Assembly: GCA_964558655.1 (NCBI GenBank)
Contig: CAZLEX010000002.1
Location: 65,600 to 129,599 of the forward strand
Source of the DNA: an uncultured Oscillospiraceae bacterium
Lineage (GTDB): Bacteria > Bacillota > Clostridia > Oscillospirales > SIG627
DNA: 64,000 nt
Direction of reading: 5' to 3'
Shown here: positions 21,351 through 61,701 of the stretch, one piece after another
Layout: each line of letters starts with the position of its first letter
Numbering within the stretch: the stretch's first letter is position 1
Notes under the pieces: model-generated
Told to the model about the DNA's origin: nothing
Database searches by the model: none
What the model saw: only the letters and a program-made list of their open reading frames with translations
Position numbers and translations under genes: made by a program

Positions 21351-21379
21351 ACCCAAAAAATTTATGTTATGAGGGTATT

Positions 21380-29054: not shown

Positions 29055-29065
29055 GGAGAGAGCAA

Positions 29066-30063: not shown

Positions 30064-30080
30064 AGCAAATAGTTTCAATA

Positions 30081-37099: not shown

Positions 37100-37120
37100 T
37101 TTTTACAGGAGGTGATAACG

Positions 37121-43894: not shown

Positions 43895-46168
43895 TTATTT
43901 CTTCGCAATTGTTGACATGGTTCTCTGTGCCATGACCAAAGAAGCATAAATGCCGTTGAGCTTAAGAAGTTCCTCGTGAGTGCCGAATTCGACAATCTTC
44001 CCTTTGTCAAGCACAATGAGTTTCGTGGCGTTGCGGAGGGTGGACAGACGGTGGGCTATGGCGAAAGTGGTGCGGTCTTTGACAAGAGCCGAAATGGAAT
44101 TTTGGATTATCTGTTCGGTTTCGGTGTCCAGTGCACTTGTCGCTTCGTCGAGAATGAGTATCTTAGGGTTACGCAGTATAGCCCGTGCTATTGCGATTCT
44201 CTGCCGTTCTCCTCCCGACAGGGTATAACCTCTGTCTCCCACATAAGTCTGATATCCGTCGGGCAGTTTCATGATGAATTTGTGAGCACCCGCCGCTTTT
44301 GCCGCACGGATTATTTCTTCACGCGGCGCGTCGGGAGCGGCGTAGGAAAGGTTGTCGAAAACGGTGCCGGAAAATAGGAATGTTTCCTGAAGCACCACGC
44401 CCATCTGACTTCTCAGACAGTGCTGTGAAATGTTTCTGATGTCTGTGCCGTCGATTTTTACCGAACCTTCGCGGACATCGTAAAGACGCATTATCAGGTT
44501 TATCAGAGTGCTTTTTCCTACACCGGAACGACCGACAATTCCTATCATTTCGCCTTTTCCGACACTGAAAGAGATTTTTCTCAAAACATCCTCCGCATCT
44601 TCGTAACCGAAAGAAACATTGTCGAATTCAACATTCCCTTCAATCGTCATATCGTCTATGGCGTTCGGGCTGTCGGTAACATCGCCGGGTTCGTCGATTA
44701 TTTCGAAAATGTGAGTCATTGCAGTCGTTGCACGCTGAATGTATCGCGGCAGACGGGTGAGCCAGTCAAAAGAGTAATAAATCTGAGAGGTGAAAGCCGT
44801 GAACATGGTGAGGTCACCGATACTCATGCTTCCGCCTATAATGCGTTTTCCGACGAAAGCCATGACGAAATAGCTTCCGATACCGGTTATGTATGTCATG
44901 TAGGGGATAATCTTTGCCCATGTCACCTCGTTCTTTTCGGAGACGAGAGCGACTTTTTTTATGGCTTCGTCGTACTTTTTAATCTCTTTTTCTTCCATGC
45001 CGTAAACTTTGACGACTCTTATCCCGCGAAATACATCGTGGAGAACGGTGTTTGCGTCACTCTCCGTCATCCACTGGCGGTGATAGAGGCGGTGGGTAAA
45101 GTGCCAGACTTTTCTCACGACAAGCATAATAATCGGTGCGGGAATCATCACGAGGAGTGCCAGACGCCAATTGTAGATGAGCATAGCCGTGCCCACAAGA
45201 AGAATGATGACGGAATTTTCCACGAGCTGTGGGAGGAAGGTGACGAAAAAGTCGGATATTATGTCGGTGTCGCCTGTCATTCGGTTAATGAGGTCGCCCG
45301 AAGTCCTTTTCGACATTTCTCCCGTCGACATAAGCTGTATCTTATCAAAAAGAAGAGAACGCAGTTTTTTCGTGAGGTGCATATTTACACGGACGAGCAT
45401 ATTGGAACGGACTATTTCAAGCACTCGGTAAACAATTTGCAGAGAGGCAATGGATATGCAAAGAAGAACAATGCCCCTGAATACAGCCGAGCTTTCCTTT
45501 CCGCCGAAATCGCCTGACGGTGCGATATATCCGTCAACGAGAATTTTCTGGAGATAGGGATTTGCGATTTTTATGAGACTTAGTACGAAAAACAGGGAAA
45601 AAGCGAAAAAGAGCAGGGGAAAATCTTTTTTTACTATTCCGAAAAGCCTCTTTATATCGGAGGACTGTTTGTGACAGTGGAGGCAGACATTTACCCCTTT
45701 TTCAAACGGCTCGTGACATTTCGGACAGATACGCCTGTCGGGTTCGTAATGTATTTCCAAATCGGAATCGCCGTCGTATTCCAAAATTGTCTGAAGACAC
45801 CTTGCCGCATCGATGAGATAGGGTGCAAGGCTCATGTCGCAACGGCATATTTCCGTAGGCAGCCCGTCTTTTTTTCCCTCAAGGCTCACCGTGCCCACAC
45901 CCGTGCGCGTCGTAAATTCGGTAAAGCTGTCAATCTTAAAAGCTTGCACATTGGTCGGATCGCCCTCTTTTTCTCCCTCCCGTGCCGTGAAAATCATATT
46001 GCGGGTAACGCCAACCGCACCGCAGAGAGTTCTGTTTTCTTCATCGAGATTGAACGGGAAGCGGAAGAGGAGGGAAGTGCTTTCCTCCGAAATCCTGCCG
46101 TACAGACGGTTTTCGGCGGATTTTTGTTTATCCCGTAGGATTTTTCTCTCTTTTTTCCATACTTTCAT
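43895..46168 (-). CDS. ABC exporter half-transporter (TMD-NBD) with ~190-aa N-terminal extension containing a zinc ribbon
   Basis: Walker A GRSGVGKST, signature LSGGERQR and Walker B ILILDEA. Six TM segments. N-terminal CPKCHEPF...CLHCH. Confidence 0.85.
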   Translation of the reverse strand: MKVWKKERKILRDKQKSAENRLYGRISEESTSLLFRFPFNLDEENRTLCGAVGVTRNMIFTAREGEKEGDPTNVQAFKIDSFTEFTTRTGVGTVSLEGKKDGLPTEICRCDMSLAPYLIDAARCLQTILEYDGDSDLEIHYEPDRRICPKCHEPFEKGVNVCLHCHKQSSDIKRLFGIVKKDFPLLFFAFSLFFVLSLIKIANPYLQKILVDGYIAPSGDFGGKESSAVFRGIVLLCISIASLQIVYRVLEIVRSNMLVRVNMHLTKKLRSLLFDKIQLMSTGEMSKRTSGDLINRMTGDTDIISDFFVTFLPQLVENSVIILLVGTAMLIYNWRLALLVMIPAPIIMLVVRKVWHFTHRLYHRQWMTESDANTVLHDVFRGIRVVKVYGMEEKEIKKYDEAIKKVALVSEKNEVTWAKIIPYMTYITGIGSYFVMAFVGKRIIGGSMSIGDLTMFTAFTSQIYYSFDWLTRLPRYIQRATTAMTHIFEIIDEPGDVTDSPNAIDDMTIEGNVEFDNVSFGYEDAEDVLRKISFSVGKGEMIGIVGRSGVGKSTLINLIMRLYDVREGSVKIDGTDIRNISQHCLRSQMGVVLQETFLFSGTVFDNLSYAAPDAPREEIIRAAKAAGAHKFIMKLPDGYQTYVGDRGYTLSGGERQRIAIARAILRNPKILILDEATSALDTETEQIIQNSISALVKDRTTFAIAHRLSTLRNATKLIVLDKGKIVEFGTHEELLKLNGIYASLVMAQRTMSTIAKK

Positions 46169-46682: not shown

Positions 46683-49019
46683 TTATTCCTCCACACCGAT
46701 GATTTTCAGTGCATCAAGCTGCATTTTGTAAAGTTTGTAATAATCGCCTTTTTTTCTGACGAGCTCTTCGTGAGTTCCGGACTCGGTCATTTTTCCGTCC
46801 TCTATGACGATAAGTCTGTCGGCATCTCTGAGGGTGGACAGGCGGTGAGCGATGATTATTGTCGTCTTGTCACGGGTAATTTCGGTAATCGCTCTCTGTA
46901 TACGCAGTTCGGTAGCCGTGTCCATTGCCGCCGTCGCTTCGTCGAGTATGAGAATTTTCGGATCCTTGAGAATTGCACGGGCAATGGATATTCTCTGAAG
47001 TTCTCCGCCCGAAAGACTGCGGTAACCGGTGCCGATTTTCGTGTTGTATCCGTCGGGATATTTTATGATGAAGTCGTGAGCTCCCGCCGCTTTTGCCGCC
47101 GAGATGACCTCTTCGTTTGACGCTTCGGGTACGGCGTAGCGGATATTGTCGGCTATGGTTCCGCAGAAAACATAGGTTTCCTGCGAGACTATGGCAACAT
47201 TTTGCCGAATGTAACTTGACGGAAGGTCTTTTACATTTACGCCGTCGATGAGTATTTCACCGTCATTCGTATCGTAAAGACGCATGGCAAGGTTTACGAG
47301 CGTGGACTTGCCCGCACCCGTGTGCCCGACGATACCTATTGTCTCACCCGGAGACACTTTAAACGAAACGCCGTCGATTACGCGGTGTCCCGGCTGATAT
47401 TCAAAGGAGACATTCCTGAATTCGACATCTCCCGAAGTTCTTTCGGGAAGCATCGGTTTTTGAGGTTCGGGTACTTCGGAGGGCGTTTCAAGTATTTGAA
47501 AGAGCCTGTACATTGCATTGAGACATTCGGAAAGCTGCTGATTGAAGCGGTTGAAAAAGTCAAGAGGTGTGTACATCATGGACATGAGCGATATGTATGT
47601 TACGAGAGTTCCGTATGTGAAATCGCTTTTTCCGTTCATTATCCCTTTTGCAACGGCAATTCCGCCTACCGCCCATACAGCCCATGTGCCTATTTCGAGG
47701 ACTGACGGAATGATGTTGCCTATGCGGTTTGAGGTTACTGTCGTACGGTAGCGGGATTCGGCAAGAGAGTCGCTCTTTTTTTTGAATTTTTCCGCCTCAA
47801 GCTTTTCACGGGAAAACGCCTTGACGACACGGTTTCCCAAAAATATATCGGAAACATAGGAGTTGAAACGGCGTCGGTGCGAGTATTCTCTTGCGTGATT
47901 TTTTCGCATGGTTTTCATGAAAAGGCTTCTTGAGAGCAAAAAGACGGGTATCGGCAACATGACAATGAGAGTGAGTTTTGCGTTCATGACGAAAAGCAGT
48001 ATTGCCACGACAACGATTTGTATGATGTTCGTGATAAAGTAGGGAAGTCCGTCCACGAAAAACCAATAGATAGATGTGGCGTCCCCGTTTATCTGCGTCA
48101 TTATTCCGCCCGACTGTCTCATGCTGAAATAGCTCAGAGACAGACGCTGTATCGCCGAAAATATCGTTTTTTTCAGGTCGTATGTCACTCTTGCCGAAAC
48201 TTTTGCCGTGACGATTGAGTGAAACATTGAAAATACGACCGAAATAAGCTTGGTAAGTGCGATGAGCAGTATGGCAAAAAATATTTTGCCGTAAAAATCT
48301 CCGTTTTTGTCAAGAACACGGTCGTAAAAAAAGCTTCCGCTTACAAACGGCGTGAAAATTCCCAGCACCGTCGACAGCACGACCATTAAAAGCACTGCCA
48401 GACTTTCTTTTTTGTACTTTGAGAAAAACGGAAGCATTTTTTTCAAAAGTCCTTTTGTGTCAAGGTCTTTGAGTGAGCGTCTGCCTCCGGGACCTCCCGG
48501 TCCGCCCGGTCCTCCGGGACCTCCCGGCCCCCCCGGATGGTGATGAGGAGTGCCTTCTTCGTGAGGCGGCCCCTCTTTTCCTTTCGGTTCGCTTATCCTC
48601 TCTCCCGCAAGGAAACGGCACAAATTCCACGCACCCTCTTTTTCACTGTTTGTGAAGTTTGCTACAACGGCGTTTTCGCTGCCGTCTTTTCGCAAGGCCG
48701 TTATCCGTCCGCCCGAAATAAATTCTTCGACGCAGAAGTTCTCCCATTCGTCAAGAGAAAAAACTTTCCAGAAGCGGATAGAAAATCCCGCGTCGCTCTT
48801 TCGGCGGGAAAAGAGACTTTTCTTTTCTTTCTCGAAAATTCCGCCGAGAGTTTCCAGTACTGCGACCTCTTCGTCGGTTGCGGCAACCCATGTATCGCAA
48901 AATTCCATGCACTGTCCCATATCGGCTCTGAAGCCGTATTTGATGTTTTGCACGGAAATTCCCCGTTCCTCAAATATGCCGCATATGTGAGGCGGGAAAA
49001 ATTTTTTTTCTTTTTCCAT
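46683..49019 (-). CDS. ABC exporter half-transporter (TMD-NBD) with ~200-aa N-terminal extension ending in HHH(PGG)6
   Basis: Walker A GHTGAGKST, signature LSGGELQR and Walker B ILILDEA. Six TM segments. Confidence 0.85.
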   Translation of the reverse strand: MEKEKKFFPPHICGIFEERGISVQNIKYGFRADMGQCMEFCDTWVAATDEEVAVLETLGGIFEKEKKSLFSRRKSDAGFSIRFWKVFSLDEWENFCVEEFISGGRITALRKDGSENAVVANFTNSEKEGAWNLCRFLAGERISEPKGKEGPPHEEGTPHHHPGGPGGPGGPGGPGGPGGRRSLKDLDTKGLLKKMLPFFSKYKKESLAVLLMVVLSTVLGIFTPFVSGSFFYDRVLDKNGDFYGKIFFAILLIALTKLISVVFSMFHSIVTAKVSARVTYDLKKTIFSAIQRLSLSYFSMRQSGGIMTQINGDATSIYWFFVDGLPYFITNIIQIVVVAILLFVMNAKLTLIVMLPIPVFLLSRSLFMKTMRKNHAREYSHRRRFNSYVSDIFLGNRVVKAFSREKLEAEKFKKKSDSLAESRYRTTVTSNRIGNIIPSVLEIGTWAVWAVGGIAVAKGIMNGKSDFTYGTLVTYISLMSMMYTPLDFFNRFNQQLSECLNAMYRLFQILETPSEVPEPQKPMLPERTSGDVEFRNVSFEYQPGHRVIDGVSFKVSPGETIGIVGHTGAGKSTLVNLAMRLYDTNDGEILIDGVNVKDLPSSYIRQNVAIVSQETYVFCGTIADNIRYAVPEASNEEVISAAKAAGAHDFIIKYPDGYNTKIGTGYRSLSGGELQRISIARAILKDPKILILDEATAAMDTATELRIQRAITEITRDKTTIIIAHRLSTLRDADRLIVIEDGKMTESGTHEELVRKKGDYYKLYKMQLDALKIIGVEE
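48483..48536 (-). repeat. In-frame (Pro-Gly-Gly)x6 coding repeat
   Basis: Minus strand reads CCG GGG GGG CCG GGA GGT CCC GGA GGA CCG GGC GGA CCG GGA GGT CCC GGA GGC. It is preceded by CAT CAC CAT (HHH) and followed by RR. Confidence 0.9.
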
Positions 49020-50887: not shown

Positions 50888-50909
50888 GGGACGCTTCGGC
50901 GTCCCTTTT
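50888..50909 (+). terminator. Rho-independent terminator after gpmI
   Basis: GGGACGC-TTCG-GCGTCCC followed by TTTT. Confidence 0.85.
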
Positions 50910-50912
50910 CTC

Positions 50913-50942
50913 TTGACAGGGGGACGGTGTTTGTTGTATAAT
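50913..50942 (+). promoter_or_regulatory. Candidate sigma-A promoter for the MBOAT operon
   Basis: TTGACA (50913-50918), 18 nt, TATAAT (50937-50942). Confidence 0.6.
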
Positions 50943-50972: not shown

Positions 50973-52382
50973 ATGGTTTTTTCGTCATATAAATTCATTT
51001 TTCTTTTTCTTCTCCCGGTACTTCTGATATATTCTCTTCTGAAAAAGACGAAGAGAGCGTCTCTTGTGAAAATTTTTCTCGTTTTGTCCTCCGTCGTCTT
51101 TTATTCTTGGGGACAGGTGCGTTTTCTGCCGGTGTTTCTCATTACCATGACTGTCGGATATTTTTTGGCGGCGGGCATTTCAAAAAGCGATAAAAAGCCT
51201 TTGAGGATTTTTATGCTTGTGCTGGGAATTGCCGAAGGGCTGGGAGTTTTGTTCTATTATAAATACCTGAATTTCACTCTCTATTCCTTCAACCGCTTTT
51301 TAGGTACGGATTTTGTTCTTTCGCAGGTGATTTTGCCTCTGGGAATTTCCTTTTACACTTTCCAGATAATAACATACCTTGTCGATGTGTACAGAAAAGA
51401 GGCACCTCTCTGCCGTTTTGAAAATTACCTTCTTTACATAACTTTTTTTCCTCAGCTCGTGGTGGGGCCGATAGTGCGTCACCGTGACTTTCTCCCTCAG
51501 CTTACCGACGAAAACATTCTCAAAACCGACGGAGTGTCGGTTTCACGTGGGATAGTGCTTTTTTCGGTGGGGTGTGCAAAAAAGATTCTCATCGCCAACC
51601 CTCTCATCGACTTTGCTTACACCTATTACACCACCGATTCGACTTCTCCTCTTCTTGCATGGGGGGCGACAATAGCCTTTACATTCGCCTATTATTTCGA
51701 TTTTTCCGGATACAGCGACATGGCGGTGGGACTGGGAAATTTCTTCAACATTAAGCTTCCCTTTAACTTCAATTCCCCTTATAAATCGCGTAACATGGCT
51801 GATTTTTGGAGGCGGTGGAACATAAGCGTTTCCACTTTTTTCGACGATTATGTCTTTCGCAGCGTCTTTCGTTTCGGTGACGGTAAGGTCCGTCTCGTTG
51901 CGGCGACCTTCATAACATTTTTTCTTTCGGGTATCTGGCACGGAGCCGGCTGGAATTACATTCTCTGGGGAATAGCAAACGGAATACTTGTCGCAATTGT
52001 ACATCTTGCGACGCTTTACCGCATAAAACTGCCCGCTTTTCTGTCCTATTTTCTTACGGGAGCGTGCGTGCTCTTAACCCGTGTACTCTTTGATTCAAGC
52101 TCTTTTACCGAAATAAAAAAGACATATTCGCTTATGTTTTCTTTTGAATGGGACAGTTTTTCTTCTTTTTGGCAGAGTGTCACTCTCTTTGTCGGAGAAA
52201 ACCTTGAGGTGTGCATAATCATGCTTTTAAGTGCACTTATATGTTTCTTTTTCAAAAACACGAAGCAAATATCCGAAAATTATACTCCGTCGTACAAGTG
52301 GGCGCTTCTTTCGGCGTTTCTTCTCTGTCTGTCTCTCGCGAACATGACGGAAGTTTCGCGGTTTCTTTATTTTAATTTCTGA
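50973..52382 (+). CDS. MBOAT-family membrane O-acyltransferase (DltB/AlgI-like)
   Basis: 469 aa, polytopic. Conserved His in SGIWHGAGWNY, plus FWRRWNIS. Confidence 0.88.
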   Translation: MVFSSYKFIFLFLLPVLLIYSLLKKTKRASLVKIFLVLSSVVFYSWGQVRFLPVFLITMTVGYFLAAGISKSDKKPLRIFMLVLGIAEGLGVLFYYKYLNFTLYSFNRFLGTDFVLSQVILPLGISFYTFQIITYLVDVYRKEAPLCRFENYLLYITFFPQLVVGPIVRHRDFLPQLTDENILKTDGVSVSRGIVLFSVGCAKKILIANPLIDFAYTYYTTDSTSPLLAWGATIAFTFAYYFDFSGYSDMAVGLGNFFNIKLPFNFNSPYKSRNMADFWRRWNISVSTFFDDYVFRSVFRFGDGKVRLVAATFITFFLSGIWHGAGWNYILWGIANGILVAIVHLATLYRIKLPAFLSYFLTGACVLLTRVLFDSSSFTEIKKTYSLMFSFEWDSFSSFWQSVTLFVGENLEVCIIMLLSALICFFFKNTKQISENYTPSYKWALLSAFLLCLSLANMTEVSRFLYFNF

Positions 52383-52393
52383 GGAAAAAGAAA

Positions 52394-54220
52394 ATGAATG
52401 TAAAAAAATGGTTTGCGGTGTTTTTTTCAACGCTTCTCTTCCTCCTGCTTTTGTGGGCGGGGGTAAATTTCTTCGTCGATCCTTTCGGCGTGTTCGGAGA
52501 CACCCTTCTTTCATACAGCGAATACAGCATGACGCAAAACCCGCGTGTATCCAAAATTGCCTACCTTGACCGTCATTATGAGGAGTACGACGCATATGTC
52601 GTAGGCTGTTCAAAGTCAAGTTCACTTCCGACCGAAAGCCTGAACAAATATTTCGGAGCGAATTTTTACAACATGATAATGTACGGCGGAGATATGTATG
52701 ATATCGAAAAGACCGTTGAGTATATTCTCGAAAATTACACTGCGGGCAATATCGTCGTGGCAATAGGTCTCGAAGAGGCAAACGCGTTTAACACCGAAGC
52801 CGATGAAATAAAAGGCAATTTGCACGCAAAGGTTGACGGTTCGGGGCTTGTTCCGTTTTATTTCAAGTACCTTTTTCTCAATCCCGAATATGCACGCGAA
52901 AAACTCACATCGTATTTTAACCGCTCCTACCTCATAACTTCCCAAGAGGTCTTTGTTTCGGAAACGGGCACCTATAACAAGTCTCTGCGTGACAGCGAAA
53001 AAATCCCCGTGCTTGAGAAGTATCTCGAAGAAAATCCGGACTTTTCCGAAGGAGAGGGAAAGTACAAAATGAAAGACGCCGACAAGTGCGTCGAAAGTCT
53101 CGGCCGCATTGACGAAATGTGTAGGGAACACGGTGCGAAGCTCACGGTAATTGCCTGCCCGATATACGAGGGCGAGCTTAAGCTTTACGATGAGAGTGCG
53201 GTTATTTCCTATTATAAAAAGATAGCCGAAACGGTCGATTTTTGGAACTTTTCGGGGCATACGGCGGTAAGTTCGGAGCCGAGATATTTTTACGACTCTC
53301 TCCACTTCCGCAACTGCGTCGGAGAGATGATGCTTGCGAAAATGTTTTCCGACAGCGATGTTTTCGTTCCCGAAAAATTCGGAGAGTACATCACTTTTGA
53401 AAACCGCGAGGAGATGACGGAGTATCTGTTTTCTCCCGCCGAAGAAGAGAATACGGTGAAAAATCTTCCCGTGCTTATGTATCATCACTTTACCCTGACA
53501 GGTACGGAGGATACGGTGAGTGCCGAGCTTTTCGACGAACATCTTACGGCTCTGGAAAATGCGGGATATACCGTGATATCGCTTGCCGATGCCGAAAATT
53601 ATGTAAAACGGGGAGAGGAGCTTCCCGAAAAGCCCGTGCTCATAACCATAGACGACGGCTATTCGTCGGCAGTCGATATTGCCGCACCCATACTTGAAAA
53701 GCATAACGCACACGCCGCCGTCGCTGTCATAGGGTGTTCGATAGGGCACTCGACCTATAAAGATACGGATATCGGAATAACGGAGCATTTTTCGCTCGAA
53801 GAGGCTCTGCCCTATGTTAAAAACGGCACTTTGACCGTAATTTCTCACACATGGGATATGCACATGGTCAAGAGCCTTGACGGAGAGGATTGCCGTGAGG
53901 GAGTGCTCATGCTTGAGAGCGAGAGCGAGGAGGATTACCTTGAGGCTCTCGAAGAAGATTTTGAAAAAATAAGCAATGTGCTCTTTGAGGCGTACGGTAC
54001 GGAAGTGACGGCGGTAGCCTACCCTCAGGGGCTTTATTCGAAAATTTCCGAAGTGTTTTTAGCCGAAAAGGGCGTTAATATAACATTTACTACGGAATGG
54101 GGAACAAATCAGATAATAAAGGGCGTTGAGCAGACTTTGAGACAGCTGTGCAGATTTTCCGTTGACGGCGGTGTCGACGGGGAGACGCTCGTAAAAATAT
54201 TGGAAAGTGCAGGGTTATAA
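52394..54220 (+). CDS. Membrane-anchored fusion: DltD/SGNH-like domain plus CE4 (NodB) polysaccharide deacetylase domain
   Basis: N-terminal TM. Candidate SGNH block I is VVGCSKSSS and block V is YDSLHF. The C-terminal NodB motifs are LITIDDGY and HTWDMH. Confidence 0.7.
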   Translation: MNVKKWFAVFFSTLLFLLLLWAGVNFFVDPFGVFGDTLLSYSEYSMTQNPRVSKIAYLDRHYEEYDAYVVGCSKSSSLPTESLNKYFGANFYNMIMYGGDMYDIEKTVEYILENYTAGNIVVAIGLEEANAFNTEADEIKGNLHAKVDGSGLVPFYFKYLFLNPEYAREKLTSYFNRSYLITSQEVFVSETGTYNKSLRDSEKIPVLEKYLEENPDFSEGEGKYKMKDADKCVESLGRIDEMCREHGAKLTVIACPIYEGELKLYDESAVISYYKKIAETVDFWNFSGHTAVSSEPRYFYDSLHFRNCVGEMMLAKMFSDSDVFVPEKFGEYITFENREEMTEYLFSPAEEENTVKNLPVLMYHHFTLTGTEDTVSAELFDEHLTALENAGYTVISLADAENYVKRGEELPEKPVLITIDDGYSSAVDIAAPILEKHNAHAAVAVIGCSIGHSTYKDTDIGITEHFSLEEALPYVKNGTLTVISHTWDMHMVKSLDGEDCREGVLMLESESEEDYLEALEEDFEKISNVLFEAYGTEVTAVAYPQGLYSKISEVFLAEKGVNITFTTEWGTNQIIKGVEQTLRQLCRFSVDGGVDGETLVKILESAGL

Positions 54221-54221
54221 A

Positions 54222-54518
54222 ATGGATTTGAAAAAAGTATTTAAAAAAGCTCAAAGCGAAGTGACGGAGACCTTAGCCGATATCGATGCGGGAGAGGTGC
54301 TTGAGAAGTTTTTTCAACAGAAGAAACCGGACGCAAAACTTGACCGTGACACCAATCTTTTTGAAAACGGTTTTGTAAATTCCATGTTCGCTTTAGAGAC
54401 TGTCATGTTCATCGAAAAAACATTTAATGTCAAACTTGCGAAAAAGGATATCACGAAAGAAAACCTTTCAAGCATAAACAAAATGGTACTTCTTGTGGAA
54501 AGGCTTAAAAATGAGTGA
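54222..54518 (+). CDS. Acyl/peptidyl carrier protein, DltC-like
   Basis: 98 aa. ENGFVNSMFALETVMFIE resembles the DltC phosphopantetheine-Ser helix (GLLDSMGTV type). Confidence 0.75.
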   Translation: MDLKKVFKKAQSEVTETLADIDAGEVLEKFFQQKKPDAKLDRDTNLFENGFVNSMFALETVMFIEKTFNVKLAKKDITKENLSSINKMVLLVERLKNE

Positions 54519-55560
54519 AAAGATAAAATGCGTTGTTTTCGACCTTGACGGCACTCTCTGGGAGGGCACGCTTGCCGAAAGCGACGATGTTAAACTCAAA
54601 AAAGGCGTGAAAGAACTGCTCGAACAGCTTGACAGGCGGGGTATTCTCATGTCCGTTGCGAGTAAAAATAATTTTGACACGGCAAAGAAAATACTCTGTC
54701 GCGAGGGACTTTTCGACTACTTTTTACTTCCGCAAATAAGCTGGAATCCGAAATCGGCGGCTCTCGAAGAAATATCGGCGGGACTTAATCTTTCCCTTCG
54801 TGAGTTTGCCTTTGTCGACGACACGCCTGAGGAGAGGGACGAAGTGCTTTTCGCACACCCCGAAGTGAGAGTGTACGACGCCGAAGAACTCTTCGATATT
54901 CCCGAATATGAAGAATTTTGCCCGAAATTCGTGACGGAGGATTCACGCCTCCGACGCAAGCTTTATCAAAACGACCTGCGTCTCAAGGAGGACGAAAAAA
55001 ATTTTTGCGGAACCAACGAAGAATTTTTAAAGACTCTCGGCATGAAACTCACCGTGTCGAAAGTGACCGAAGGAGACCTGGAGAGAGTGGAGGAGCTCAC
55101 ACGGCGTACCCACCAACTCAATTCTACCGGACGCACATTTTCCTTTGAGGAACTTAACCGTATAAAAGACGACGAAAACTACATTTTTCTTATAGTTTCT
55201 CTTGAAAACAGGTACGGAGACTGCGGTAAAGTGGGGCTTGCCCTCATGGAAAAAAGCGATGACGCATATATCATAAAACTTCTCATCATGTCCTGCCGGG
55301 TGATGTCTTTGGGGATAGGTTCCGCCATGCTGGTCTACCTGTCCTCGCTGGCGGTGCGTGACAAAAAACGGCTGCTCGCAGATTTCGTATTTACCGACCG
55401 TAACCGTATTATGTATATCACATACAAAATGTTCGGCTTTTCGGACAACAGTGAGGACGACGCACCGTCGGCACTTCTGGAATGGGACGGAGAACCCAGA
55501 ACTATGCCGGATTTTTTCGAGGTACATGACGAGACGGGAGAAAAAGATGAAAGAGACTGA
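54511..55560 (+). CDS. HAD-IIIC / FkbH-like protein
   Basis: VVFDLDGTLWEG phosphatase motif I and a C-terminal LLIMSCRVMSLGIGS block. I recognise the latter as the FkbH-like Cys-containing motif. Confidence 0.8.
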   Translation: MSEKIKCVVFDLDGTLWEGTLAESDDVKLKKGVKELLEQLDRRGILMSVASKNNFDTAKKILCREGLFDYFLLPQISWNPKSAALEEISAGLNLSLREFAFVDDTPEERDEVLFAHPEVRVYDAEELFDIPEYEEFCPKFVTEDSRLRRKLYQNDLRLKEDEKNFCGTNEEFLKTLGMKLTVSKVTEGDLERVEELTRRTHQLNSTGRTFSFEELNRIKDDENYIFLIVSLENRYGDCGKVGLALMEKSDDAYIIKLLIMSCRVMSLGIGSAMLVYLSSLAVRDKKRLLADFVFTDRNRIMYITYKMFGFSDNSEDDAPSALLEWDGEPRTMPDFFEVHDETGEKDERD

Positions 55561-56059
55561 AGAAATACTTGCTTTTCTTGACAGGAGCGGTGTGAGTTAC
55601 GAAAAATTTCTACACGAAGAATGTAACACTATTCGAGAAAAGGCAGAGCTTGACAGCAGGTTTGGAATAAAAGCGAAACATTGCAAAAATATTTTTTTAA
55701 CCGATCGCAAACAGCGTGTGTTTTTCCTACTTGTGATACCTTTTGAAAAGACTTTCCGCACTGCCGAAGTGTCCAAACAGCTCGGAACATCACGCCTGAG
55801 TTTTGCAAGCGAAGAATTGCTTATGGAAAAGCTCAGGTGCCGTTCGGGACATCTTTCTTCTCTCTGTCTGCTTTACGACAGGGAGGAAGAAATAAAGCTG
55901 GTGCTTGACCGTGACCTTATGCGTGAGGAGGCTCTCTGTTTTCACCCGGCCGAGAACACCGTAACACTAACCCTTTCGACGCAGAGCTTTGTGTCCGAAC
56001 TTTGTCCGAAACTTTTTCACACACCCGTTTTTGTAACGGTAAGCACACCTATTCCGTAA
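55547..56059 (+). CDS. YbaK/ProX-like aminoacyl-tRNA deacylase-domain protein
   Basis: 170 aa with the ...HCKNIFL...VIP...SFAS...L...G.. pattern of prolyl-tRNA-synthetase-associated editing domains. ATG at 55547 overlaps the upstream gene by 14 nt. Confidence 0.65.
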   Translation: MKETEEILAFLDRSGVSYEKFLHEECNTIREKAELDSRFGIKAKHCKNIFLTDRKQRVFFLLVIPFEKTFRTAEVSKQLGTSRLSFASEELLMEKLRCRSGHLSSLCLLYDREEEIKLVLDRDLMREEALCFHPAENTVTLTLSTQSFVSELCPKLFHTPVFVTVSTPIP

Positions 56060-56080
56060 AATAAAACGGAGGTGTTATAT

Positions 56081-57562
56081 ATGAAAAAAATCAAACGCCC
56101 GAAAAAACGGGCGTGTTTTTTTGTCTGGATTTGGCTTAAATGTGAGGAGTGCGAAAAAGGATTTGAAAAAGATTTTAACGAAAGGTTCGTGATTGACCAT
56201 AATATTTTTCGTGACACTGTTCTCTATCTGTCCGAATACTCCACGACAATTATAGCCGCTGTCACGAAAGAACAGCTTGAAGATATATTGAAAGACCGTC
56301 GGTGTGAGGGAGTGAGCGAGTACAAACGGCTTTGTCCGAAAAAAATGTCGGAGAAAATTCTTTCTCAGATGAATTTCGCAACGCCTGTGCAACATGAGAC
56401 AAATGTGTCAGGTGTGATAGGAATGATTTCTGCCGAGCGGGAAATATTTTATTCGCCGTCTCCACAACTTATGACAGCCGTGAGGGAGGGAAGAATAAGC
56501 GTACTCGATTATCCCGTGCCGTCTGTTCCCGCTCTTCACCCTTCCGTTGTCCTCTCGCAGATTATAGGGGAAGAGGTTTATGCCGAAGGCGGAGTTTACA
56601 GAGGCGTCTGTCCCGACGCAAGCGTTGTTTTTTCGACTTCGGAAACCGAAACCGATGTGCTTCTCGCAACCGAAAAAATGATAGAGAGGGGAATAAAAAT
56701 CATTAATTTCAGTGCGGGCATTTTCTCCGACGGCTATACGGATTTTGACCGTCAGATAGACAGGCTTGCCGAGAGAAACTCTCTTCTGTTTGTCACGGCG
56801 GCGGGCAACAGGCGTTATGTCACAAGTCCGGGACGGGCATACAATGTGCTCTGCGTCGGCAATCTTCAGACCAAAGATTCTCCCTCGTCATTTCTCTCTC
56901 CCACTTGGAGTACCCGCTGTCCGAACGAGGTCAACTGCTCGGCGTTCGTCTCATCTCCCACTCTTGCACATAAGCCCGATGTATGTGCACCGGGTACATA
57001 CATTCCGTATGTTCTGCCTAATTACGAGGTGTACGCTTTGAACATCGGCACAAGCTTTGCGTGTCCGTGGGTATCGGGACTTGCTCTTCTTATTTCCGAA
57101 GAGCGTCGGGATATCCCGTCCCTCGCACTCAAGGCACTAATAGCTCTCTCCTGCAACACTTCGGTCGTGTCCTGTGCCGACAATCCCGCAATAGATGGGG
57201 AACCTTTTATGCGGGAGAGAACGGGATTCGGTGCGATTGATTTTTTATCCTCTCTCGAAATGGCACGCGGTGCCTTGATTGAGACTTTTTCGGGCACCGC
57301 TTTGACACGCACGGCGTTTTTAAGTGAGGGAGATACCCTTTTTGCCGCAGTTTGCTACAACGCGAATATCTCCCGTCCCGATGAAAATATCATTCTTGAG
57401 CTGTCGGTACAGGACAGTCGCATATCCTGCTTTGCACAGGGACAAAATCTGCATATTGTCAAATATTTTTCACCCTCTTCTCAAAGAGCCGTTATAAGCG
57501 TTTCGGGTAATATTCTTTCGGAATATGCCTTTGTCCTTTACATAAAAAAGCGGGAGATGTGA
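56081..57562 (+). CDS. S8 (subtilisin-like) serine peptidase with no evident signal peptide
   Basis: The Asp (FVIDHN), His (QHETNVSGVIG), Asn (TAAGN) and Ser (GTSFACPWVSG) blocks occur in the subtilase order. ATG at 56081 lies 8 nt after GGAGG. Confidence 0.8.
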   Translation: MKKIKRPKKRACFFVWIWLKCEECEKGFEKDFNERFVIDHNIFRDTVLYLSEYSTTIIAAVTKEQLEDILKDRRCEGVSEYKRLCPKKMSEKILSQMNFATPVQHETNVSGVIGMISAEREIFYSPSPQLMTAVREGRISVLDYPVPSVPALHPSVVLSQIIGEEVYAEGGVYRGVCPDASVVFSTSETETDVLLATEKMIERGIKIINFSAGIFSDGYTDFDRQIDRLAERNSLLFVTAAGNRRYVTSPGRAYNVLCVGNLQTKDSPSSFLSPTWSTRCPNEVNCSAFVSSPTLAHKPDVCAPGTYIPYVLPNYEVYALNIGTSFACPWVSGLALLISEERRDIPSLALKALIALSCNTSVVSCADNPAIDGEPFMRERTGFGAIDFLSSLEMARGALIETFSGTALTRTAFLSEGDTLFAAVCYNANISRPDENIILELSVQDSRISCFAQGQNLHIVKYFSPSSQRAVISVSGNILSEYAFVLYIKKREM

Positions 57563-57576
57563 CTCTCCCGTTTTTA
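57544..57576. terminator. Bidirectional terminator between the S8 peptidase gene and the holin cassette
   Basis: CGGGAGA-tgtgac-TCTCCCG, flanked by A7 upstream and T5 downstream. It overlaps both stop codons. Confidence 0.75.
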
Positions 57577-57801
57577 TCGCTTTTCGGACCGTATTTCCAG
57601 CTTTTCTATGCGGTGTTCGCAAACTTTGTTTTTTATTTCGAGCTGTGTAACCCTCTCCGACAGGTCGGTGCACACGCTCATTTTCTTTTCCAACTGTTCC
57701 AGACGGTATTTGACGAGCTTTTGAGTGGAGAAAACACCGCCGAAAGAACCCAAAGCCGTCCCCGCAAAACTGAGCAGGGCAACGATTACGGCGTCGGTCA
57801 T
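57574..57801 (-). CDS. Holin-like peptide with BhlA/UviB-type topology (N-terminal TM plus coiled coil)
   Basis: 75 aa. TM segment AVIVALLSFAGTALGSFGGVF, then a heptad-rich LEQLEKK...QLEIKNK...IEKLEI. ATGA overlap with the upstream holin. Confidence 0.5.
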   Translation of the reverse strand: MTDAVIVALLSFAGTALGSFGGVFSTQKLVKYRLEQLEKKMSVCTDLSERVTQLEIKNKVCEHRIEKLEIRSEKR

Positions 57802-58007
57802 TTCTCTTCTCCGCTCTCTTTGCCTGCGGCGTCCACATAACCTTCCGACAAAATGTAGGCTATGAGAGTTCCCGACGAAACGATGAGGGAACAGACCGTT
57901 ACAATTTCGCTTTCGGGGAATTTGAGAAGAACCATAACGGGTGTTACAAACCCCGCAACGCCCGACCAGAATTTACGGCTGGACAGTTTTCTTTTCAGTT
58001 CGTTCAT
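57798..58007 (-). CDS. Phage holin (two TM)
   Basis: 69 aa. The SRKFWSGVAGFVTPV...LIAYILSEGYVDA pattern is common in clostridial prophage holins. Confidence 0.6.
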   Translation of the reverse strand: MNELKRKLSSRKFWSGVAGFVTPVMVLLKFPESEIVTVCSLIVSSGTLIAYILSEGYVDAAGKESGEEK

Positions 58008-58186
58008 ATTTCTTCCTCCTCAATAACTATGTTTTCGCTTTCACGCAGCTTTTCCGACAGTTCGAGATATTCGTTTTCGCTTATACGGTCGAGCATGAGA
58101 AAGAGGTCGAGCTTTGAAAACAATGATTCGTGTGAATATTTTTTCTTTGACAGTATTATCAAGAGATATTCGTAAGTTTTATTCAT
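58004..58186 (-). CDS. XkdX-like small phage protein
   Basis: 60 aa in the position between tail fibre and holin. It has a ...DRISENEYLEL... motif similar to XkdX. Confidence 0.4.
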   Translation of the reverse strand: MNKTYEYLLIILSKKKYSHESLFSKLDLFLMLDRISENEYLELSEKLRESENIVIEEEEI

Positions 58187-58197
58187 TTTTTCTCCTT

Positions 58198-60246
58198 TCA
58201 GCTTTTGAGTTCAAGCAGGGATATGCGGGCGTCGAGAGTGACAAGGGTATCTATAATGCTTTCAAACACGCTTGAGGCGTCTCTCGTGTATTCAATGGAA
58301 AGTACGCCTTCCGACGCTTCGAGTGTGTTAAATTCCCGCAGAAGTTCGGCTTTTTCTCCGAGAGTTATCGGTACCTGTTCGGGTTCTTTTGACACATAGA
58401 GAAATTCAACGGGAAATTCTCCGTGACTTTTGGAGAGGAACGCCTGCACGCTTGAGGCGTCGGGAAAATCTTCGCTTTTCAGTTTCAGGTATATCTTGTC
58501 GCCTCTCACATGACAGCATTCTTCGCTTAGGTCGTCGGCATAGGGGAAATGAGTGCAAAATCCCATGTCGTAGTACATTCCCGGATAAAATTCTTTTGCA
58601 TCTTCAAGAGAGGGGGAGGTTAAGGAAAACACGGTGTATCCGTCCTCACACTCTTCTTCGAGCGCGACACTTTCGGTGCCGTCGGCGGTGTAGCGGGAAG
58701 TTCGGTATACTGTATGTCCTGCCTCCGTTCTTCCGGTTATAACGCTGTCGGCAAATTTTCCGCACTCTCCCGAAATCGAGCAGAGTGGGCGGGAGAGGGG
58801 AAGTGTATATATTTTTTCAAAGTGCTTTTCATATGTGCCGTCGGAGCCGAATTGCCTTATCATCGGAAAAACTTTGTCACAGCAAAGGCGTGTGTTAGCA
58901 TAGATATACAGACGCACTTTGACGACAGACGGGCTTTCCAGCGTAAATTCGGCGTCTCCCGAAACGGAACGGGCAATGTATGCCGATTTTTCGCTACTGT
59001 AAACGAACACTCCGCACCGTCCCGTGCCTCCGGACACGACATAGTGCCCCGCGTCGAGAGTGAAATCGGCGGGGGTAATTTCGGCGTAGGACTTCATGTC
59101 ACCCGTCTCTCCCGTAACGCTTACACAGCCGTCGCTTTCAACGCTGTATTTTACTCCTCCGCTTTCGTATTCGCTTTCTATGGTATACGGAAACGAAATG
59201 TAGTTTTTTCCGCAGTGACTTATGAAGATTTTCCCTGAGTCTCCCGCACTTTCTATCTTTACGGGGTTTGTGCGGGAGGGAGCGTGCTCCTGAAAAGAAG
59301 TCCCGGTAAGCTCGGCTTTTTCGGGGACTTTTGCGTCGGCGTCGTAAACCGTTATACGCTCTCCCGTGTATTTGCCGATTACGGCACTTGAGACAAGGAA
59401 GAGTTTTTCGCACACTTTGCCCAAAGCCTTTTCAACGCCTGATACACGCTCTTCACGCAGTTTTTCTCCCGCAACTCTGCCGCGTTCGGCACTTATGCGT
59501 TCGGCTTCCGCAAGCGAGCGTTCGTTTTCGGCACAAATTCTTTTTTGTTCTCCCTCTTCACGCAGTTTTTCGCTCTCCTGCCTGTCGTTTTCTCCCGCCT
59601 TCCTTTCGTATTCGGAAAGGGAGAGAGAACTGTCGCGGGAAAGAAGCGTGTCAATGCAGTCTTTTACACGCTCCAGCGACAAATTCATCGAATTTTCAGC
59701 CCCGCCGGTATGGGAGGCGATTCTTCGACATTCTTCGGCATAGCCCGAGCAGGCGAGGGTGCTGTCTTTACAGCTTTCTTCGGCACTCAGAGCGTTCTTT
59801 GCGGAAATTTCGGCGTTCTTTTCGGACGCTGCCGCTTCTTTTGCCGAATTTTCGGCTTCGTCTGCCTTTTCGCATACCTGTGAGACATACTGTGCGTAGG
59901 CGTTTTCACTCACGGTGGGCACCTCTCCCGAAGACAGCGTTCCCTCAACGAAAAATTCAGCCCGGTTTGTCGTTGATATGCTGTAAGTCCCGCATACTCC
60001 GAGAACGCTCACATAGACATTCCCACGCACCAGCACTTCGGCGGGAATGTAGTAAACGCCGCCGTCACGCACCCCCGCGACATCGTAGACGGTGGGACTT
60101 GAGGCGTGCCTGAACCTGACTGTGAGGGAATATCCGTCCCACTTTTTGTCACATTCGAGCGTAAAAGAGGCAAAGGCGACAGCACCTTCGGCGACGGTGG
60201 ATTGTCCCGATATTTCCAAACTTTGCCCTCTTACAAGAAATTTCAT
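58198..60246 (-). CDS. Phage tail-fibre / receptor-binding-like protein
   Basis: 682 aa from ATG 60246 (MKFLVRGQSL...). It has an N-terminal Ig-like BppU-type region, a long Ala/Glu/Ser coiled coil and a C-terminal globular part. The upstream 41 codons of the track ORF have no RBS logic. Confidence 0.6.
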   Translation of the reverse strand: MKFLVRGQSLEISGQSTVAEGAVAFASFTLECDKKWDGYSLTVRFRHASSPTVYDVAGVRDGGVYYIPAEVLVRGNVYVSVLGVCGTYSISTTNRAEFFVEGTLSSGEVPTVSENAYAQYVSQVCEKADEAENSAKEAAASEKNAEISAKNALSAEESCKDSTLACSGYAEECRRIASHTGGAENSMNLSLERVKDCIDTLLSRDSSLSLSEYERKAGENDRQESEKLREEGEQKRICAENERSLAEAERISAERGRVAGEKLREERVSGVEKALGKVCEKLFLVSSAVIGKYTGERITVYDADAKVPEKAELTGTSFQEHAPSRTNPVKIESAGDSGKIFISHCGKNYISFPYTIESEYESGGVKYSVESDGCVSVTGETGDMKSYAEITPADFTLDAGHYVVSGGTGRCGVFVYSSEKSAYIARSVSGDAEFTLESPSVVKVRLYIYANTRLCCDKVFPMIRQFGSDGTYEKHFEKIYTLPLSRPLCSISGECGKFADSVITGRTEAGHTVYRTSRYTADGTESVALEEECEDGYTVFSLTSPSLEDAKEFYPGMYYDMGFCTHFPYADDLSEECCHVRGDKIYLKLKSEDFPDASSVQAFLSKSHGEFPVEFLYVSKEPEQVPITLGEKAELLREFNTLEASEGVLSIEYTRDASSVFESIIDTLVTLDARISLLELKS

Positions 60247-60534
60247 ATTATCCCTTCTTTCTTTTTTGAAGGACCTCCACATACCTTTCCTTCTGCAAGT
60301 GATTATATCAAAGTGGGTGCATGACATACAATGACACGGATATGACGGGAAATGTTGATTTTTTAACAAATTTATGGTAGAATAACCTCAAACCGACGAC
60401 GGTGGAACGCCGTCGAAATGCCAACGCATTTAAAAATTTTCAAATTTTGTTTGAGAACATTGTATCATTAAACCGGTCGCACTGCGGTGAGACGACGGCT
60501 ACGCCGACTTCAAAGGCTATCGCCTTTGGGTTTA

Positions 60535-60591: not shown

Positions 60592-61701
60592 ATGCCGGAA
60601 CTGAGAGACGCCGTAAAAGAAAAAGAGTCCCTGTGGGACTTTTTGGTTCAAAGCGGACGCAATATCGTGCTTTACGGAATGGGGGACGGAGCGGTCAAAA
60701 TTCTTTCGGTACTTGAAAAGTACGGGCTTCATGCGGCGGGAATTTTCGCTTCAGACGAATTTGTAAGATACAATGAATTCTGTTCCCACACCGTGAAAAA
60801 ACTCTCGGACATCGAAGAGGAATACGACGATTTCGTCATTCTCACGGCATTTGCGACAAAAATCCCCGAAGTGCGTGAAAAAATTTTTGCCATTGCCGAC
60901 CGTCACACTCTCTTTGTCCCCGATATAAATGTTTCGTCGGATCCGCTCGAAGTGTTCGACTGTAAATTTTTTAATGAAAATTACGAAAGGCTCAATCGGG
61001 TGTACAATGCTCTTGATACGCAAGAGTCGAGAGAAATGTTTGCTACCTTGATAAACTACAAGCTTTCGGGGAAACTTGAGTATCTCGCTCTTTTGGAAGA
61101 GTATCGTAGAAAAGCTTTGCCTCTGTTCGACATTTCCCAAGTGGAAAGTTTTGCCGACATCGGAGCGTATACGGGGGATACTCTCATCGAAGCGGTGCAA
61201 ACTTATCCGAATTTGAAACGGGCAGCCTGTTTTGAGCCCGACCCCAAAACATTCAAAAAGCTTGAAAAAACAGCTTCGACACTTCAGGCTGATGTTTCGC
61301 TTTTCAACGCCGCCGCGTCTGATGAGAATATAAAGGTTAATCTCTTTGCACAGGGAGGCAGAAACAGTGCCGTCAGTAAAAATTCCCTCGCACCGTCGGG
61401 TATGCAAAAAAAGCGTGAAATGTGCGTTGACGCACTGCGGCCGGACAGCGTCTGTCCCTTTGTACCCGACCTTATAAAAATAGACGCTGAGGGAAGCGAC
61501 TGTGACGCACTTGAAGGGTGTCGGGGATTTTTCTCACACGCTTCTCCGATTATTTTCGTATCCGTTTATCATAACAACCGCGACCTTTTTGAAATATACG
61601 AGAAAATTTGTGACATAAAAAAAGACTGCAAGTTCGCTCTGAGACAGAAATGCGAATACATTCCCGCCTGGGATATCGAACTTGCAGCGTATAACGGTTA
61701 G
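60592..61701 (+). CDS. FkbM-family methyltransferase
   Basis: The C-terminal half has the SAM-binding FADIGAYTGDT and IKIDAEGSD motifs of FkbM-type methyltransferases. Confidence 0.75.
   Translation: MPELRDAVKEKESLWDFLVQSGRNIVLYGMGDGAVKILSVLEKYGLHAAGIFASDEFVRYNEFCSHTVKKLSDIEEEYDDFVILTAFATKIPEVREKIFAIADRHTLFVPDINVSSDPLEVFDCKFFNENYERLNRVYNALDTQESREMFATLINYKLSGKLEYLALLEEYRRKALPLFDISQVESFADIGAYTGDTLIEAVQTYPNLKRAACFEPDPKTFKKLEKTASTLQADVSLFNAAASDENIKVNLFAQGGRNSAVSKNSLAPSGMQKKREMCVDALRPDSVCPFVPDLIKIDAEGSDCDALEGCRGFFSHASPIIFVSVYHNNRDLFEIYEKICDIKKDCKFALRQKCEYIPAWDIELAAYNG

Follow-up and report, generated by a model that had tools for sequence, protein, structure and literature searches.

The 64-kb stretch analysed here (the window), which comes from contig CAZLEX010000002.1 of an uncultured Oscillospiraceae bacterium, contains an operon encoding an MBOAT acyltransferase, a membrane-anchored protein in which a DltD-fold SGNH-like domain is fused to a CE4 de-N-acetylase (gene 2), a small carrier protein and an orthologue of the HAD-IIIC enzyme FkbH. 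Judged by conservation among relatives, only these first four genes of the row form the conserved core. We favour, with moderate confidence, the reading that they constitute a carrier-dependent MBOAT–SGNH pathway which places a glycerate-derived acyl group on an extracytoplasmic glycopolymer of the cell envelope. The gene set, the folds of the encoded domains, the conservation of their catalytic residues and the synteny of the genes are observations, and we describe them below together with the alternatives that have to be weighed against this reading.

Our comparative approach combined a survey of the open reading frames (ORFs) of the window, whose proteins were searched with Pfam and curated profile models, with a scan of about 185,000 species-representative genomes, one per species. 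Relatives of the gene 2 fusion were found in 297 of these genomes, and the best 80 of the 297 were used for all locus counts (n = 80 species-level genomes), with the loci typed by tblastn and by clustering of the ORFs from the 80 fetched genomes. The arrangement MBOAT–fusion–carrier–FkbH, here called type A, was present in 51 of the 80 loci, with the MBOAT gene adjoining in 50 and the contig of the 51st beginning inside the cassette. In 18 further loci (type B) the gene order was adenylase–GNAT–carrier–MBOAT–fusion, the enzyme being an amino-acid adenylase that scores above the cut-off of TIGR01733 (354 bits) and below that of the DltA models (320–340 bits). The remaining 11 loci comprised six on truncated contigs, three with the MBOAT and fusion genes only and two with the fusion gene alone. 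The GNAT protein of the type B loci has 267 aa and may conceivably N-acetylate an aminoacyl group.

A dedicated carrier and loader therefore lie in the same gene row in 69 of the 80 loci, and each loader type has its own carrier subtype and its own MBOAT subtype. Because one MBOAT/carrier/fusion chassis occurs with either of them, FkbH and the DltA-like ligase can be regarded as alternative loaders, and since the genes flanking the cassette vary between lineages, its linkage appears to be functional and not inherited synteny. An initial annotation of this DNA, made from the sequence alone, had placed FkbH in the position of DltA in a Dlt-like system and had suggested a survey of MBOAT–carrier–FkbH co-occurrence; the exchange of FkbH for adenylase plus GNAT on the same chassis, and the recurrence of the type A arrangement in differing neighbourhoods, bear this out. 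The picture of a Dlt operon with a single gene swapped had to be abandoned, since the MBOAT carries a fused tyrosine shuttle and the DltD-like domain is fused to a CE4 domain.

All of the best 80 gene 2 matches come from metagenome-assembled genomes (MAGs), nearly all labelled Clostridia/Bacillota and many from animal and human guts. In a large protein collection we found 1284 homologues of FkbH and 798 of gene 2, and the best gene 2 matches, among the matches listed, were covered over practically the full length. The few named homologues belong to Clostridia/Bacillota MAGs and bear no label other than “HAD-IIIC family phosphatase” or “polysaccharide deacetylase family protein”, the latter being the sole name within the gene 2 cluster, whose members are MAG proteins throughout. 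The N-terminal domain of gene 2 had no match among 72,556 plasmids.

The assignment of the loader to FkbH is solid by sequence criteria. The protein scores 244.8 bits against TIGR01686 (cut-off 146.65) over profile positions 3–322 of 323, and both the HAD motifs I–IV (D11xD13xT15, S51-K-N53, K81 and D103-D104) and the S261-C262-R-V264 block are invariant in an alignment of 39 homologues, in agreement with its first description as an FkbH-like protein with a DLDGTLW motif and a Cys block. The same motifs and the Cys align identically in two FkbH proteins from polyketide synthase (PKS) contexts. An AlphaFold2 model (predicted local distance difference test, pLDDT, 91.3) consists of a HAD domain resembling MDP-1 and BF1531 followed by a C-terminal domain of the GNAT fold, a fold which binds pantetheine arms. 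No solved FkbH structure was found by sequence or profile search, in which only the HAD part of BF1531 and MDP-1 matched. A tblastn search against plasmids gave a bimodal distribution, with 43–51% identity to FkbH proteins of PKS and non-ribosomal peptide synthetase (NRPS) clusters and 24–30% to other HAD-IIIC proteins. A Streptomyces canus FkbH (49% identical) closes an extender-unit cassette of 3-hydroxyacyl-CoA dehydrogenase, acyl carrier protein (ACP), acyl-CoA dehydrogenase and FkbH, and a homologue on the Bacillus cereus plasmid pBCA1 (47% identical) belongs to a hybrid NRPS-PKS cluster, where it is flanked by an ABC exporter on one side and an NRPS on the other; these identities span more than 90% of the FkbH length. 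We take the pBCA1 site to be the ZmaN position of the zwittermicin cluster. ZmaN is part of a four-enzyme route to hydroxymalonyl-ACP (PMC5355916).

The 47–49% identity, together with the literature on FkbH, predicts that the enzyme converts 1,3-bisphosphoglycerate to glyceryl-S-ACP. Genes for a dehydrogenase, an O-methyltransferase, a FabH-like enzyme or a ketosynthase (KS)/PKS are found neither beside the window cassette nor in the conserved core of its relatives, and because such tailoring genes are missing from both places, plain glyceryl-S-carrier is, by analogy, the expected product. The same architecture might instead handle an acyl group other than plain glycerate, either because FkbH uses another phosphorylated acyl phosphate or because the glyceryl-carrier is altered before export, for example by oxidation, dehydration to lactyl or pyruvoyl, or O-methylation, through unlinked or nearby enzymes. 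This would match the tailoring of FkbH products in every known pathway (methoxymalonyl, hydroxymalonyl, tetronate), the recurrence near the cassette in relatives of an FkbM methyltransferase gene such as that 3 kb downstream in the window (60592–61701), and the metallophosphoesterase or CotH kinase gene which directly follows FkbH in other loci. We nevertheless consider an acyl group other than glycerate rather unlikely: the core of the 51 type A loci has no conserved tailoring gene, the HAD phosphatase residues are all kept, which fits a substrate with a second phosphate, and the identity to extender-unit FkbH argues for the same first reaction. We know of no candidate for such a substrate besides 1,3-bisphosphoglycerate.

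The FkbH enzymes characterised to date come from pathways for polyketides and non-ribosomal peptides, and FkbH together with an ACP is a hallmark of such clusters. Moreover, aeruginosin and suomilide clusters hold both MBOAT genes and FkbH domains, and acylation of a small molecule has been proposed for some aeruginosin clusters. One could thus see the operon as a fragment of a polyketide- or tetronate-type cluster in which FkbH and the ACP supply glycerate and the MBOAT acylates a small molecule. However, neither the window nor any one of the 51 loci contains a KS, FabH-like, NRPS or PKS gene, the partner protein is a membrane-anchored extracytoplasmic protein with DltD-fold and CE4 domains, and the MBOAT bears the shuttle motif of polymer acylation, so that we regard this origin as very improbable.

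The nearest solved structure of the MBOAT is DltB (8jem/6bug, 1e-20), and the protein reaches 155 bits against the DltB equivalog TIGR04091, for which the cut-off is 375. It exceeds DltB in length by about 50 residues, and its C-terminal sequence is ...VSRFLYFNF, this motif being preceded by two extra hydrophobic segments after the MBOAT core (residues 409–427 and 444–462). In 60 aligned relatives, H323 (within WHG), F464 and Y466 are at least 97% conserved and W279-R-R-W282 is invariant. The extreme C-terminus reads FLYF[QNDS]F in all type A MBOATs and F-I-Y-x-x-[FYI] in all type B MBOATs that are complete, most of which have SEFIYKQ[FY]. In the Dlt pathway the FXYXXF “acyl shuttle” resides on the microprotein DltX, whereas PatA, AlgI and similar MBOATs carry it at their own C-terminus, where it is fused via two additional helices. 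In PatA the enzyme itself acetylates the Tyr of this motif, from which PatB then takes the acetyl group, and the DltB/DltX/DltD relay works likewise, fed from DltC (PMC12148441). On these sequence features the window MBOAT, earlier labelled “DltB/AlgI-like”, is of the PatA/AlgI type and not of the DltB type. No small ORF for a separate DltX microprotein lies upstream of the MBOAT gene, where the 90-nt gap is occupied by the promoter, and none would be needed because the MBOAT ends in the fused motif. The operon in the window thus joins a fused-shuttle MBOAT of the acetyl-CoA class to the carrier-protein logic of Dlt.

This class membership is also what speaks for reading the MBOAT and the fusion protein as an ordinary acetyl-CoA-dependent O-acetylation/deacetylation pair comparable to PatA/PatB/Ape1 or AlgI/AlgJ, in which case the carrier and FkbH would have another purpose, such as a lipid or a small molecule. 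In line with it, three loci beside tilS-ftsH hold the MBOAT and fusion genes with no carrier or loader nearby (L074, 4436–7678; L080, 6498–9830; L084, 2028–5303), and relatives of the SGNH domain that stand alone have just an MBOAT as partner (L089). Against it, the carrier and loader, of two unrelated types with matched subtypes, stand in the gene row of 69 of the 80 loci, the genes overlap or abut, and there is no other conserved enzyme able to consume a glyceryl-carrier. We therefore consider this reading unlikely.

Gene 2, a single ORF of 608 aa (52394–54220), combines two extracytoplasmic activities in our interpretation. Its residues 1–369 have no Pfam match even at E = 10, DltD included, and the AlphaFold2 model, built from an alignment of 36 full-length homologues, has a mean pLDDT of 91.9. 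Foldseek searches of the PDB match the N-terminal domain to DltD (3bma, 6o93, 6pfx and 7dxm; E 3e-4 to 3e-3, probability 0.98–1.0) and also to PatB (7tjb). S73 (in GCSK), D301 and H304 (DxxH) are invariant in the 36 sequences and form a predicted SGNH-type triad. Membership of the DltD family at the sequence level was considered and rejected, as there is no Pfam match and a profile search of the PDB yields CE4 proteins only; the proposed relation to DltD is one of modelled fold. Because an N-terminal transmembrane helix (residues 3–28) anchors the protein, both domains should face outward, by analogy with DltD. Stand-alone relatives of the N-terminal domain, of about 355 aa, adjoin an MBOAT and come without a carrier, and therefore the SGNH domain belongs to a wider family of MBOAT partners. 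One such 355-aa protein lies beside an MBOAT and a SASA-domain protein (L089, 313–2813).

The C-terminal domain matches Polysacc_deac_1 (PF01522, 2.8e-11, 43.9 bits against a cut-off of 23.1) and stays far below the PgaB and IcaB equivalog cut-offs. Profile searches of the PDB find BpsB, PgaB, IcaB and PplD (1e-27 to 1e-23), and Foldseek finds PplD (2.5e-15) and PgaB (6e-15), with PplD, PgaB and IcaB in the range of 1e-15 to 1e-11. D420, D421, H485, H490, H364, Y543 and P544 are invariant in the 36 sequences, and D420-D421, H485, H490 and H364 correspond to the predicted metal and base residues of the PgaB type. Taken together, the invariant residues of gene 2 would fit two active enzymes. The initial annotation of a membrane-anchored DltD-like protein is thus correct at the level of fold, and had missed the whole CE4 domain.

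The carrier stays below the cut-offs of the curated models, as discussed below. In 70 carriers from type A and type B loci the Ser that opens helix II never varies; it stands within the motif G[FY][VI]NS[LM]FALE in type A and DG[LV][LI][DE]S[FL]DI in type B. An Sfp-type phosphopantetheinyl transferase (PPTase) gene (PF01648, 1.7e-14) lies directly 5′ of the MBOAT gene in 12 type A loci. The stated absence of an adenylation-domain gene from the window was confirmed by the ORF survey and by tblastn with the DltA-like protein of a related locus; the tblastn search of the whole 64 kb likewise revealed no Sfp-type PPTase, GT2–GtrA fusion or 630-aa membrane protein, the latter two being discussed with the acceptor.

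From these components we infer the donor, the acyl group, the order of the steps and the acceptor, which could be lipoteichoic acid (LTA), a secondary wall polysaccharide or a polymer resembling poly-N-acetylglucosamine (PNAG). By orthology to characterised FkbH enzymes, the loader would react with 1,3-bisphosphoglycerate to form 3-phosphoglyceryl-S-Cys262; its HAD domain would strip the 3-phosphate, and its GNAT-fold domain would hand the glyceryl group to the phosphopantetheine thiol on Ser54 of the carrier. In analogy with DltB/DltX and PatA, the MBOAT, by means of His323, would then take the acyl group off the carrier thioester and bring it through the membrane to Tyr466. The SGNH Ser73 of the fusion protein would accept it from Tyr466 and deliver it to an envelope polymer containing N-acetylglucosamine (GlcNAc) or glucosamine, and the CE4 domain would de-N-acetylate an N-acetyl-hexosamine in the same polymer. 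This last activity might free the amine for acylation, amounting to an acetyl-to-glyceroyl swap, or act on a neighbouring residue; alternatively, the CE4 domain might be a trimming or regulating hydrolase, as Ape1 is in the Pat system.

The fused CE4 domain points by analogy to an N-acetyl-hexosamine polymer as the target, PgaB, IcaB and PplD being enzymes that de-N-acetylate surface polymers with GlcNAc. Furthermore, a GT2–GtrA fusion and a polytopic membrane protein of about 630 aa without a Pfam match, a possible GT-C glycosyltransferase, flank the cassette in 12–13 type A loci and in none of type B. In its layout the pair resembles polyprenol-phosphate-sugar systems, which attach sugars to teichoic acids and wall polysaccharides on the outer side of the membrane; the CsbB/GtcA/YfhO-type systems are the basis for the analogy. 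Elsewhere in the window, a gene at 21341–23311 (+) encodes a 656-aa LtaS-like protein with a sulfatase domain (295–570) after a long N-terminal region, and because of this LtaS-type architecture the organism may make polyglycerol-phosphate LTA.

A more specific version of the pathway would be an acyl swap supplied straight from glycolysis, in which the CE4 domain de-N-acetylates GlcNAc of a teichoic-acid-type or secondary wall polymer and the SGNH domain re-acylates the amine, or a hydroxyl close by, with glycerate that comes from 1,3-bisphosphoglycerate by way of the carrier and the MBOAT Tyr; in some species GT2–GtrA and the 630-aa protein might install the sugar outside the cell. This version is doubtful. 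If true, it would decorate the polymer with N- or O-glyceroyl-glucosamine to an extent that follows glycolytic flux, type B loci would do likewise with an amino acid or N-acetylamino acid, and the two locus types would make up one family of modular, programmable machines that acylate the envelope of gut Clostridia.

Several points weigh against the glycerate pathway as we propose it. The members of the cassette are known from genes alone, and the role of the CE4 domain may be either that of an acceptor maker or that of an acyl remover. The carrier reaches only 17.6–17.8 bits against PP-binding (PF00550, cut-off 20.8) and falls below the DltC models (NF003464, 29.5 bits with a cut-off of 68; TIGR01688, 21.7 bits with a cut-off of 52.35). 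Beside the window operon there is no PPTase gene, no GT2–GtrA gene and no obvious gene for a target polymer. Since MBOAT/SGNH pairs occur without a carrier or loader, both in the three loci beside tilS-ftsH and among the stand-alone relatives, such pairs may run on acyl-CoA. To our knowledge, glycerate esters or amides have not been reported from wall polymers of clostridia. We considered the glyceric acid found in the LTA of Clostridioides difficile as a product and rejected it, because it is bound glycosidically and has a free carboxyl (PMC13558421). Moreover, the fused-motif MBOATs studied to date use acyl-CoA, namely acetyl-CoA, without a carrier (PMC12148441).

The coordinates of the operon and of representative related loci, which bear L numbers, are collected in the following table.

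Features of the window operon (window coordinates) and examples of related loci (coordinates of the respective locus)
Feature	Coordinates	Strand	Details
Terminator-like hairpin 3′ of gpmI	50888-50905		Lies before the promoter
Sigma-70-type promoter	50913..50942	+	TTGACA-18 nt-TATAAT; 12/12 consensus positions, best site in 48-60 kb
MBOAT acyltransferase gene	50973..52382	+	469 aa, PatA/AlgI-type by sequence; Pfam MBOAT 3.5e-29
Acyl-shuttle hexapeptide FLYFNF	52362..52379	+	MBOAT residues 464-469; Tyr466 is the predicted acyl-Tyr site
Gene 2, N-terminal part	52394..53443	+	Transmembrane anchor (3-28) and DltD-fold SGNH-like domain (~30-350)
Gene 2, C-terminal part	53457..54220	+	CE4 de-N-acetylase domain of PgaB/IcaB/PplD type (~355-608)
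Carrier protein gene	54222..54518	+	98 aa from ATG 54222; ORF opens with GTG 54207
Predicted phosphopantetheine Ser54 of the carrier	54381-54383	+
FkbH orthologue gene	54511..55560	+	349 aa; HAD-IIIC domain, then GNAT-fold domain with Cys262 (55294-55296)
ProXp-ala/YbaK-like deacylase gene	55547..56059	+	170 aa; Pfam tRNA_edit 1.2e-18
S8-like peptidase gene	56081..57562	+	493 aa, start ATG 56081; Pfam Peptidase_S8 1.2e-22
Terminator-like hairpin, both strands	57546..57575	both	+ strand, 12-pair stem and T-run; - strand, 7-pair stem and T-run
Type B locus L049	2277-9827		Adenylase, GNAT, carrier, MBOAT, fusion; other type B loci: L034, L041, L045, L048, L050, L052, L056, L063, L064, L066-L068, L072, L073, L079, L085, L086
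GT2–GtrA/630-aa locus L006	13172-16197		More GT2–GtrA/630-aa/PPTase loci: L015, L020-L023, L033, L037, L044, L046, L047, L054, L081
GT2–GtrA/630-aa locus L019	2987-6544

The boundaries of the operon agree with those first proposed, a consensus promoter followed by six co-directional genes and a bidirectional terminator, and the genes of the operon are translationally coupled. Adjacent genes either overlap or are separated by 12–22 nt. The gene 2 start at 52394 follows the MBOAT stop at 52382, the carrier start at 54222 follows the gene 2 stop at 54220, the FkbH ATG (54511) lies within the carrier gene, which stops at 54518, and the YbaK-like ATG (55547) precedes the FkbH stop at 55560. A further terminator-like hairpin (56095–56114; 7-bp stem with six G-C pairs, followed by a T-run) is located inside the S8 coding sequence at codons 5–12. 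We rejected it as the terminator of the operon because the S8 N-terminus around it is conserved as protein in relatives; it may act as an attenuator where transcription runs on from the acylation genes into S8. Upstream lies gpmI (TIGR01307, 442 bits), which was also rejected as a functional neighbour because relatives carry other upstream genes, as anticipated when its adjacency was called possibly coincidental. Rfam contains no RNA family with a match in the window. Opposite gene 2 we observed a long antisense ORF (52622–53863, −; 413 aa), with counterparts in relatives of up to 638 aa (L081, 7728–9632, −); we treat these ORFs as artefacts of composition, although their recurrence is striking.

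The last two genes of the row are present as annotated, but they are confined to the closest relatives and do not belong to the conserved core. Among 86 loci the YbaK-like gene occurs only in L001 and L007–L009. The nearest solved structure of its product is ProXp-ala (5vxb, 2e-16), an Ala-tRNA(Pro) deacylase, and the gene may encode a hydrolase for proof-reading or be a passenger with no relation to the pathway. The S8 gene, found in the same four loci, is probably outside the acylation unit. Its product has no signal peptide, matches Peptidase_S8 only over profile positions 73–272 and also matches the phage protease family phrog_3677 (5e-14). At the site of the subtilase catalytic-Asp motif it carries a conserved GMISAERE, and the motifs around the His (LHPSVV), the Asn (AAGN) and the Ser (GTSFACP) are retained; the protein may be proteolytically inactive or work with an unusual triad.

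Downstream, on the opposite strand (57574–60369, −), three genes for small proteins (75, 69 and 60 aa) and one for a 723-aa coiled-coil-rich protein match the phage families phrog_1863 and phrog_2310 and a virion structural protein. These four genes also lie 3′ of the S8 gene in L001 and L007–L009 and look like a fixed phage-derived module. The FkbM-family methyltransferase gene on the + strand beyond them lies near the cassette in seven loci, namely the window, L001, L007–L009 and the distant L057 and L076 (33–36% identity); the enzyme might O-methylate the glyceryl group or a sugar. Other genes of the window include two for ABC exporters (ABC_membrane and ABC_tran domains; 43895–46168, − and 46683–49019, −) with N-terminal extensions of about 190 aa, that of the second including a low-complexity (PGG)n stretch. 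At 27387–31736 (+), genes for a Ser/Thr protein kinase (555 aa) and an ATPase of the FtsK/SpoIIIE family (551 aa) are followed by genes for large proteins without a Pfam match (32737–35151 and 37112–38428), and this region could represent a secretion or conjugation-type module.

Full-text searches of the literature brought up no description of such an FkbH–MBOAT envelope system, in keeping with the earlier impression that the modification is uncharacterised. FkbH or HAD-IIIC proteins were not found there in connection with MBOAT, Dlt or polysaccharide acylation except for the unrelated aeruginosin clusters and cj1302, an FkbH-domain gene mentioned in a Campylobacter flagellar glycosylation locus. 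This locus is presumably connected with pseudaminic acid that bears a glyceroyl group, in which case the glyceroylation of glycans would have a precedent in the cytoplasm, but one without an MBOAT. What is new here is an MBOAT–SGNH polymer acylation system in which a carrier is paired with an FkbH loader, the shuttle is fused to the MBOAT and a CE4 domain is fused to the SGNH-like domain, with a chemistry that we infer.

MBOAT–SGNH acylation, in the form of D-alanylation and O-acetylation, shapes resistance to lysozyme, cationic peptides and phages as well as immune recognition. Two configurations are known, Dlt with a carrier and a separate DltX, and the acetyl-CoA systems with no carrier and a fused Tyr shuttle; the cassette would be a third, with a carrier and a fused shuttle. 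The interchange of FkbH and adenylase would identify the outward acyl relay as a general chassis to which different activating enzymes of the cytoplasm can be fitted. If our reading is true, FkbH would gain a role in the cell envelope and in primary metabolism, with a glycolytic intermediate as the direct donor of a surface modification. Since relatives occur in 297 genomes, of which the best 80 are largely Clostridia/Bacillota and many come from guts, what is at stake is probably the surface chemistry of abundant gut commensals, and, if true, a new kind of cell-wall decoration.

Overall, the operon shares features with four groups of known systems. Like Dlt, it has a cytoplasmic loader predicted to charge a small, putatively phosphopantetheinylated carrier, an MBOAT with DltB as its nearest structure to move the acyl group outward, an F-x-Y-x-x-F Tyr shuttle and a DltD-fold SGNH domain for the final transfer, and the type B loci even use a DltA-like adenylase. 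It differs in that the adenylating DltA is replaced by the phosphatase/acyltransferase FkbH and D-alanine by the expected glycerate, and in that the shuttle is fused to the MBOAT on two extra helices instead of residing on the DltX microprotein. Moreover, its DltD-like domain has no sequence match to DltD and is fused to a CE4 deacetylase, and the DltB and DltC equivalog scores are far under their cut-offs.

With PatA/PatB/Ape1, AlgI/AlgJ/AlgX and WssH/WssI the operon shares the MBOAT His and the C-terminal FXYXXF on two additional transmembrane helices, as well as a separate membrane-anchored SGNH transferase and a hydrolase within the system (PMC12148441). However, these systems use acyl-CoA and no carrier, whereas the operon type has a carrier and loader, and their hydrolase is a separate SGNH esterase, whereas that of the operon is a CE4 de-N-acetylase fused to the transferase. 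PgaB, IcaB and PplD resemble the C-terminal domain of gene 2 in profile, in fold, in the Asp-Asp/His/His residues and in the N-terminal His of the permuted PgaB type. In gene 2, unlike in these enzymes, the CE4 domain sits behind an acyltransferase domain and a transmembrane anchor, and no PNAG synthase genes lie nearby.

Finally, the loader belongs to the same curated family as FkbH, OzmB, ZmaN and the tetronate enzymes, with which it shares the level of identity given above, the HAD motifs, the Cys and a neighbouring gene for a dedicated stand-alone, here putative, ACP. In contrast to those pathways, the operon does not include FkbI/FkbK dehydrogenases, an FkbG methyltransferase, a FabH-like enzyme or a PKS, and the only conserved downstream partners of its FkbH are the MBOAT and the extracytoplasmic SGNH–CE4 protein.

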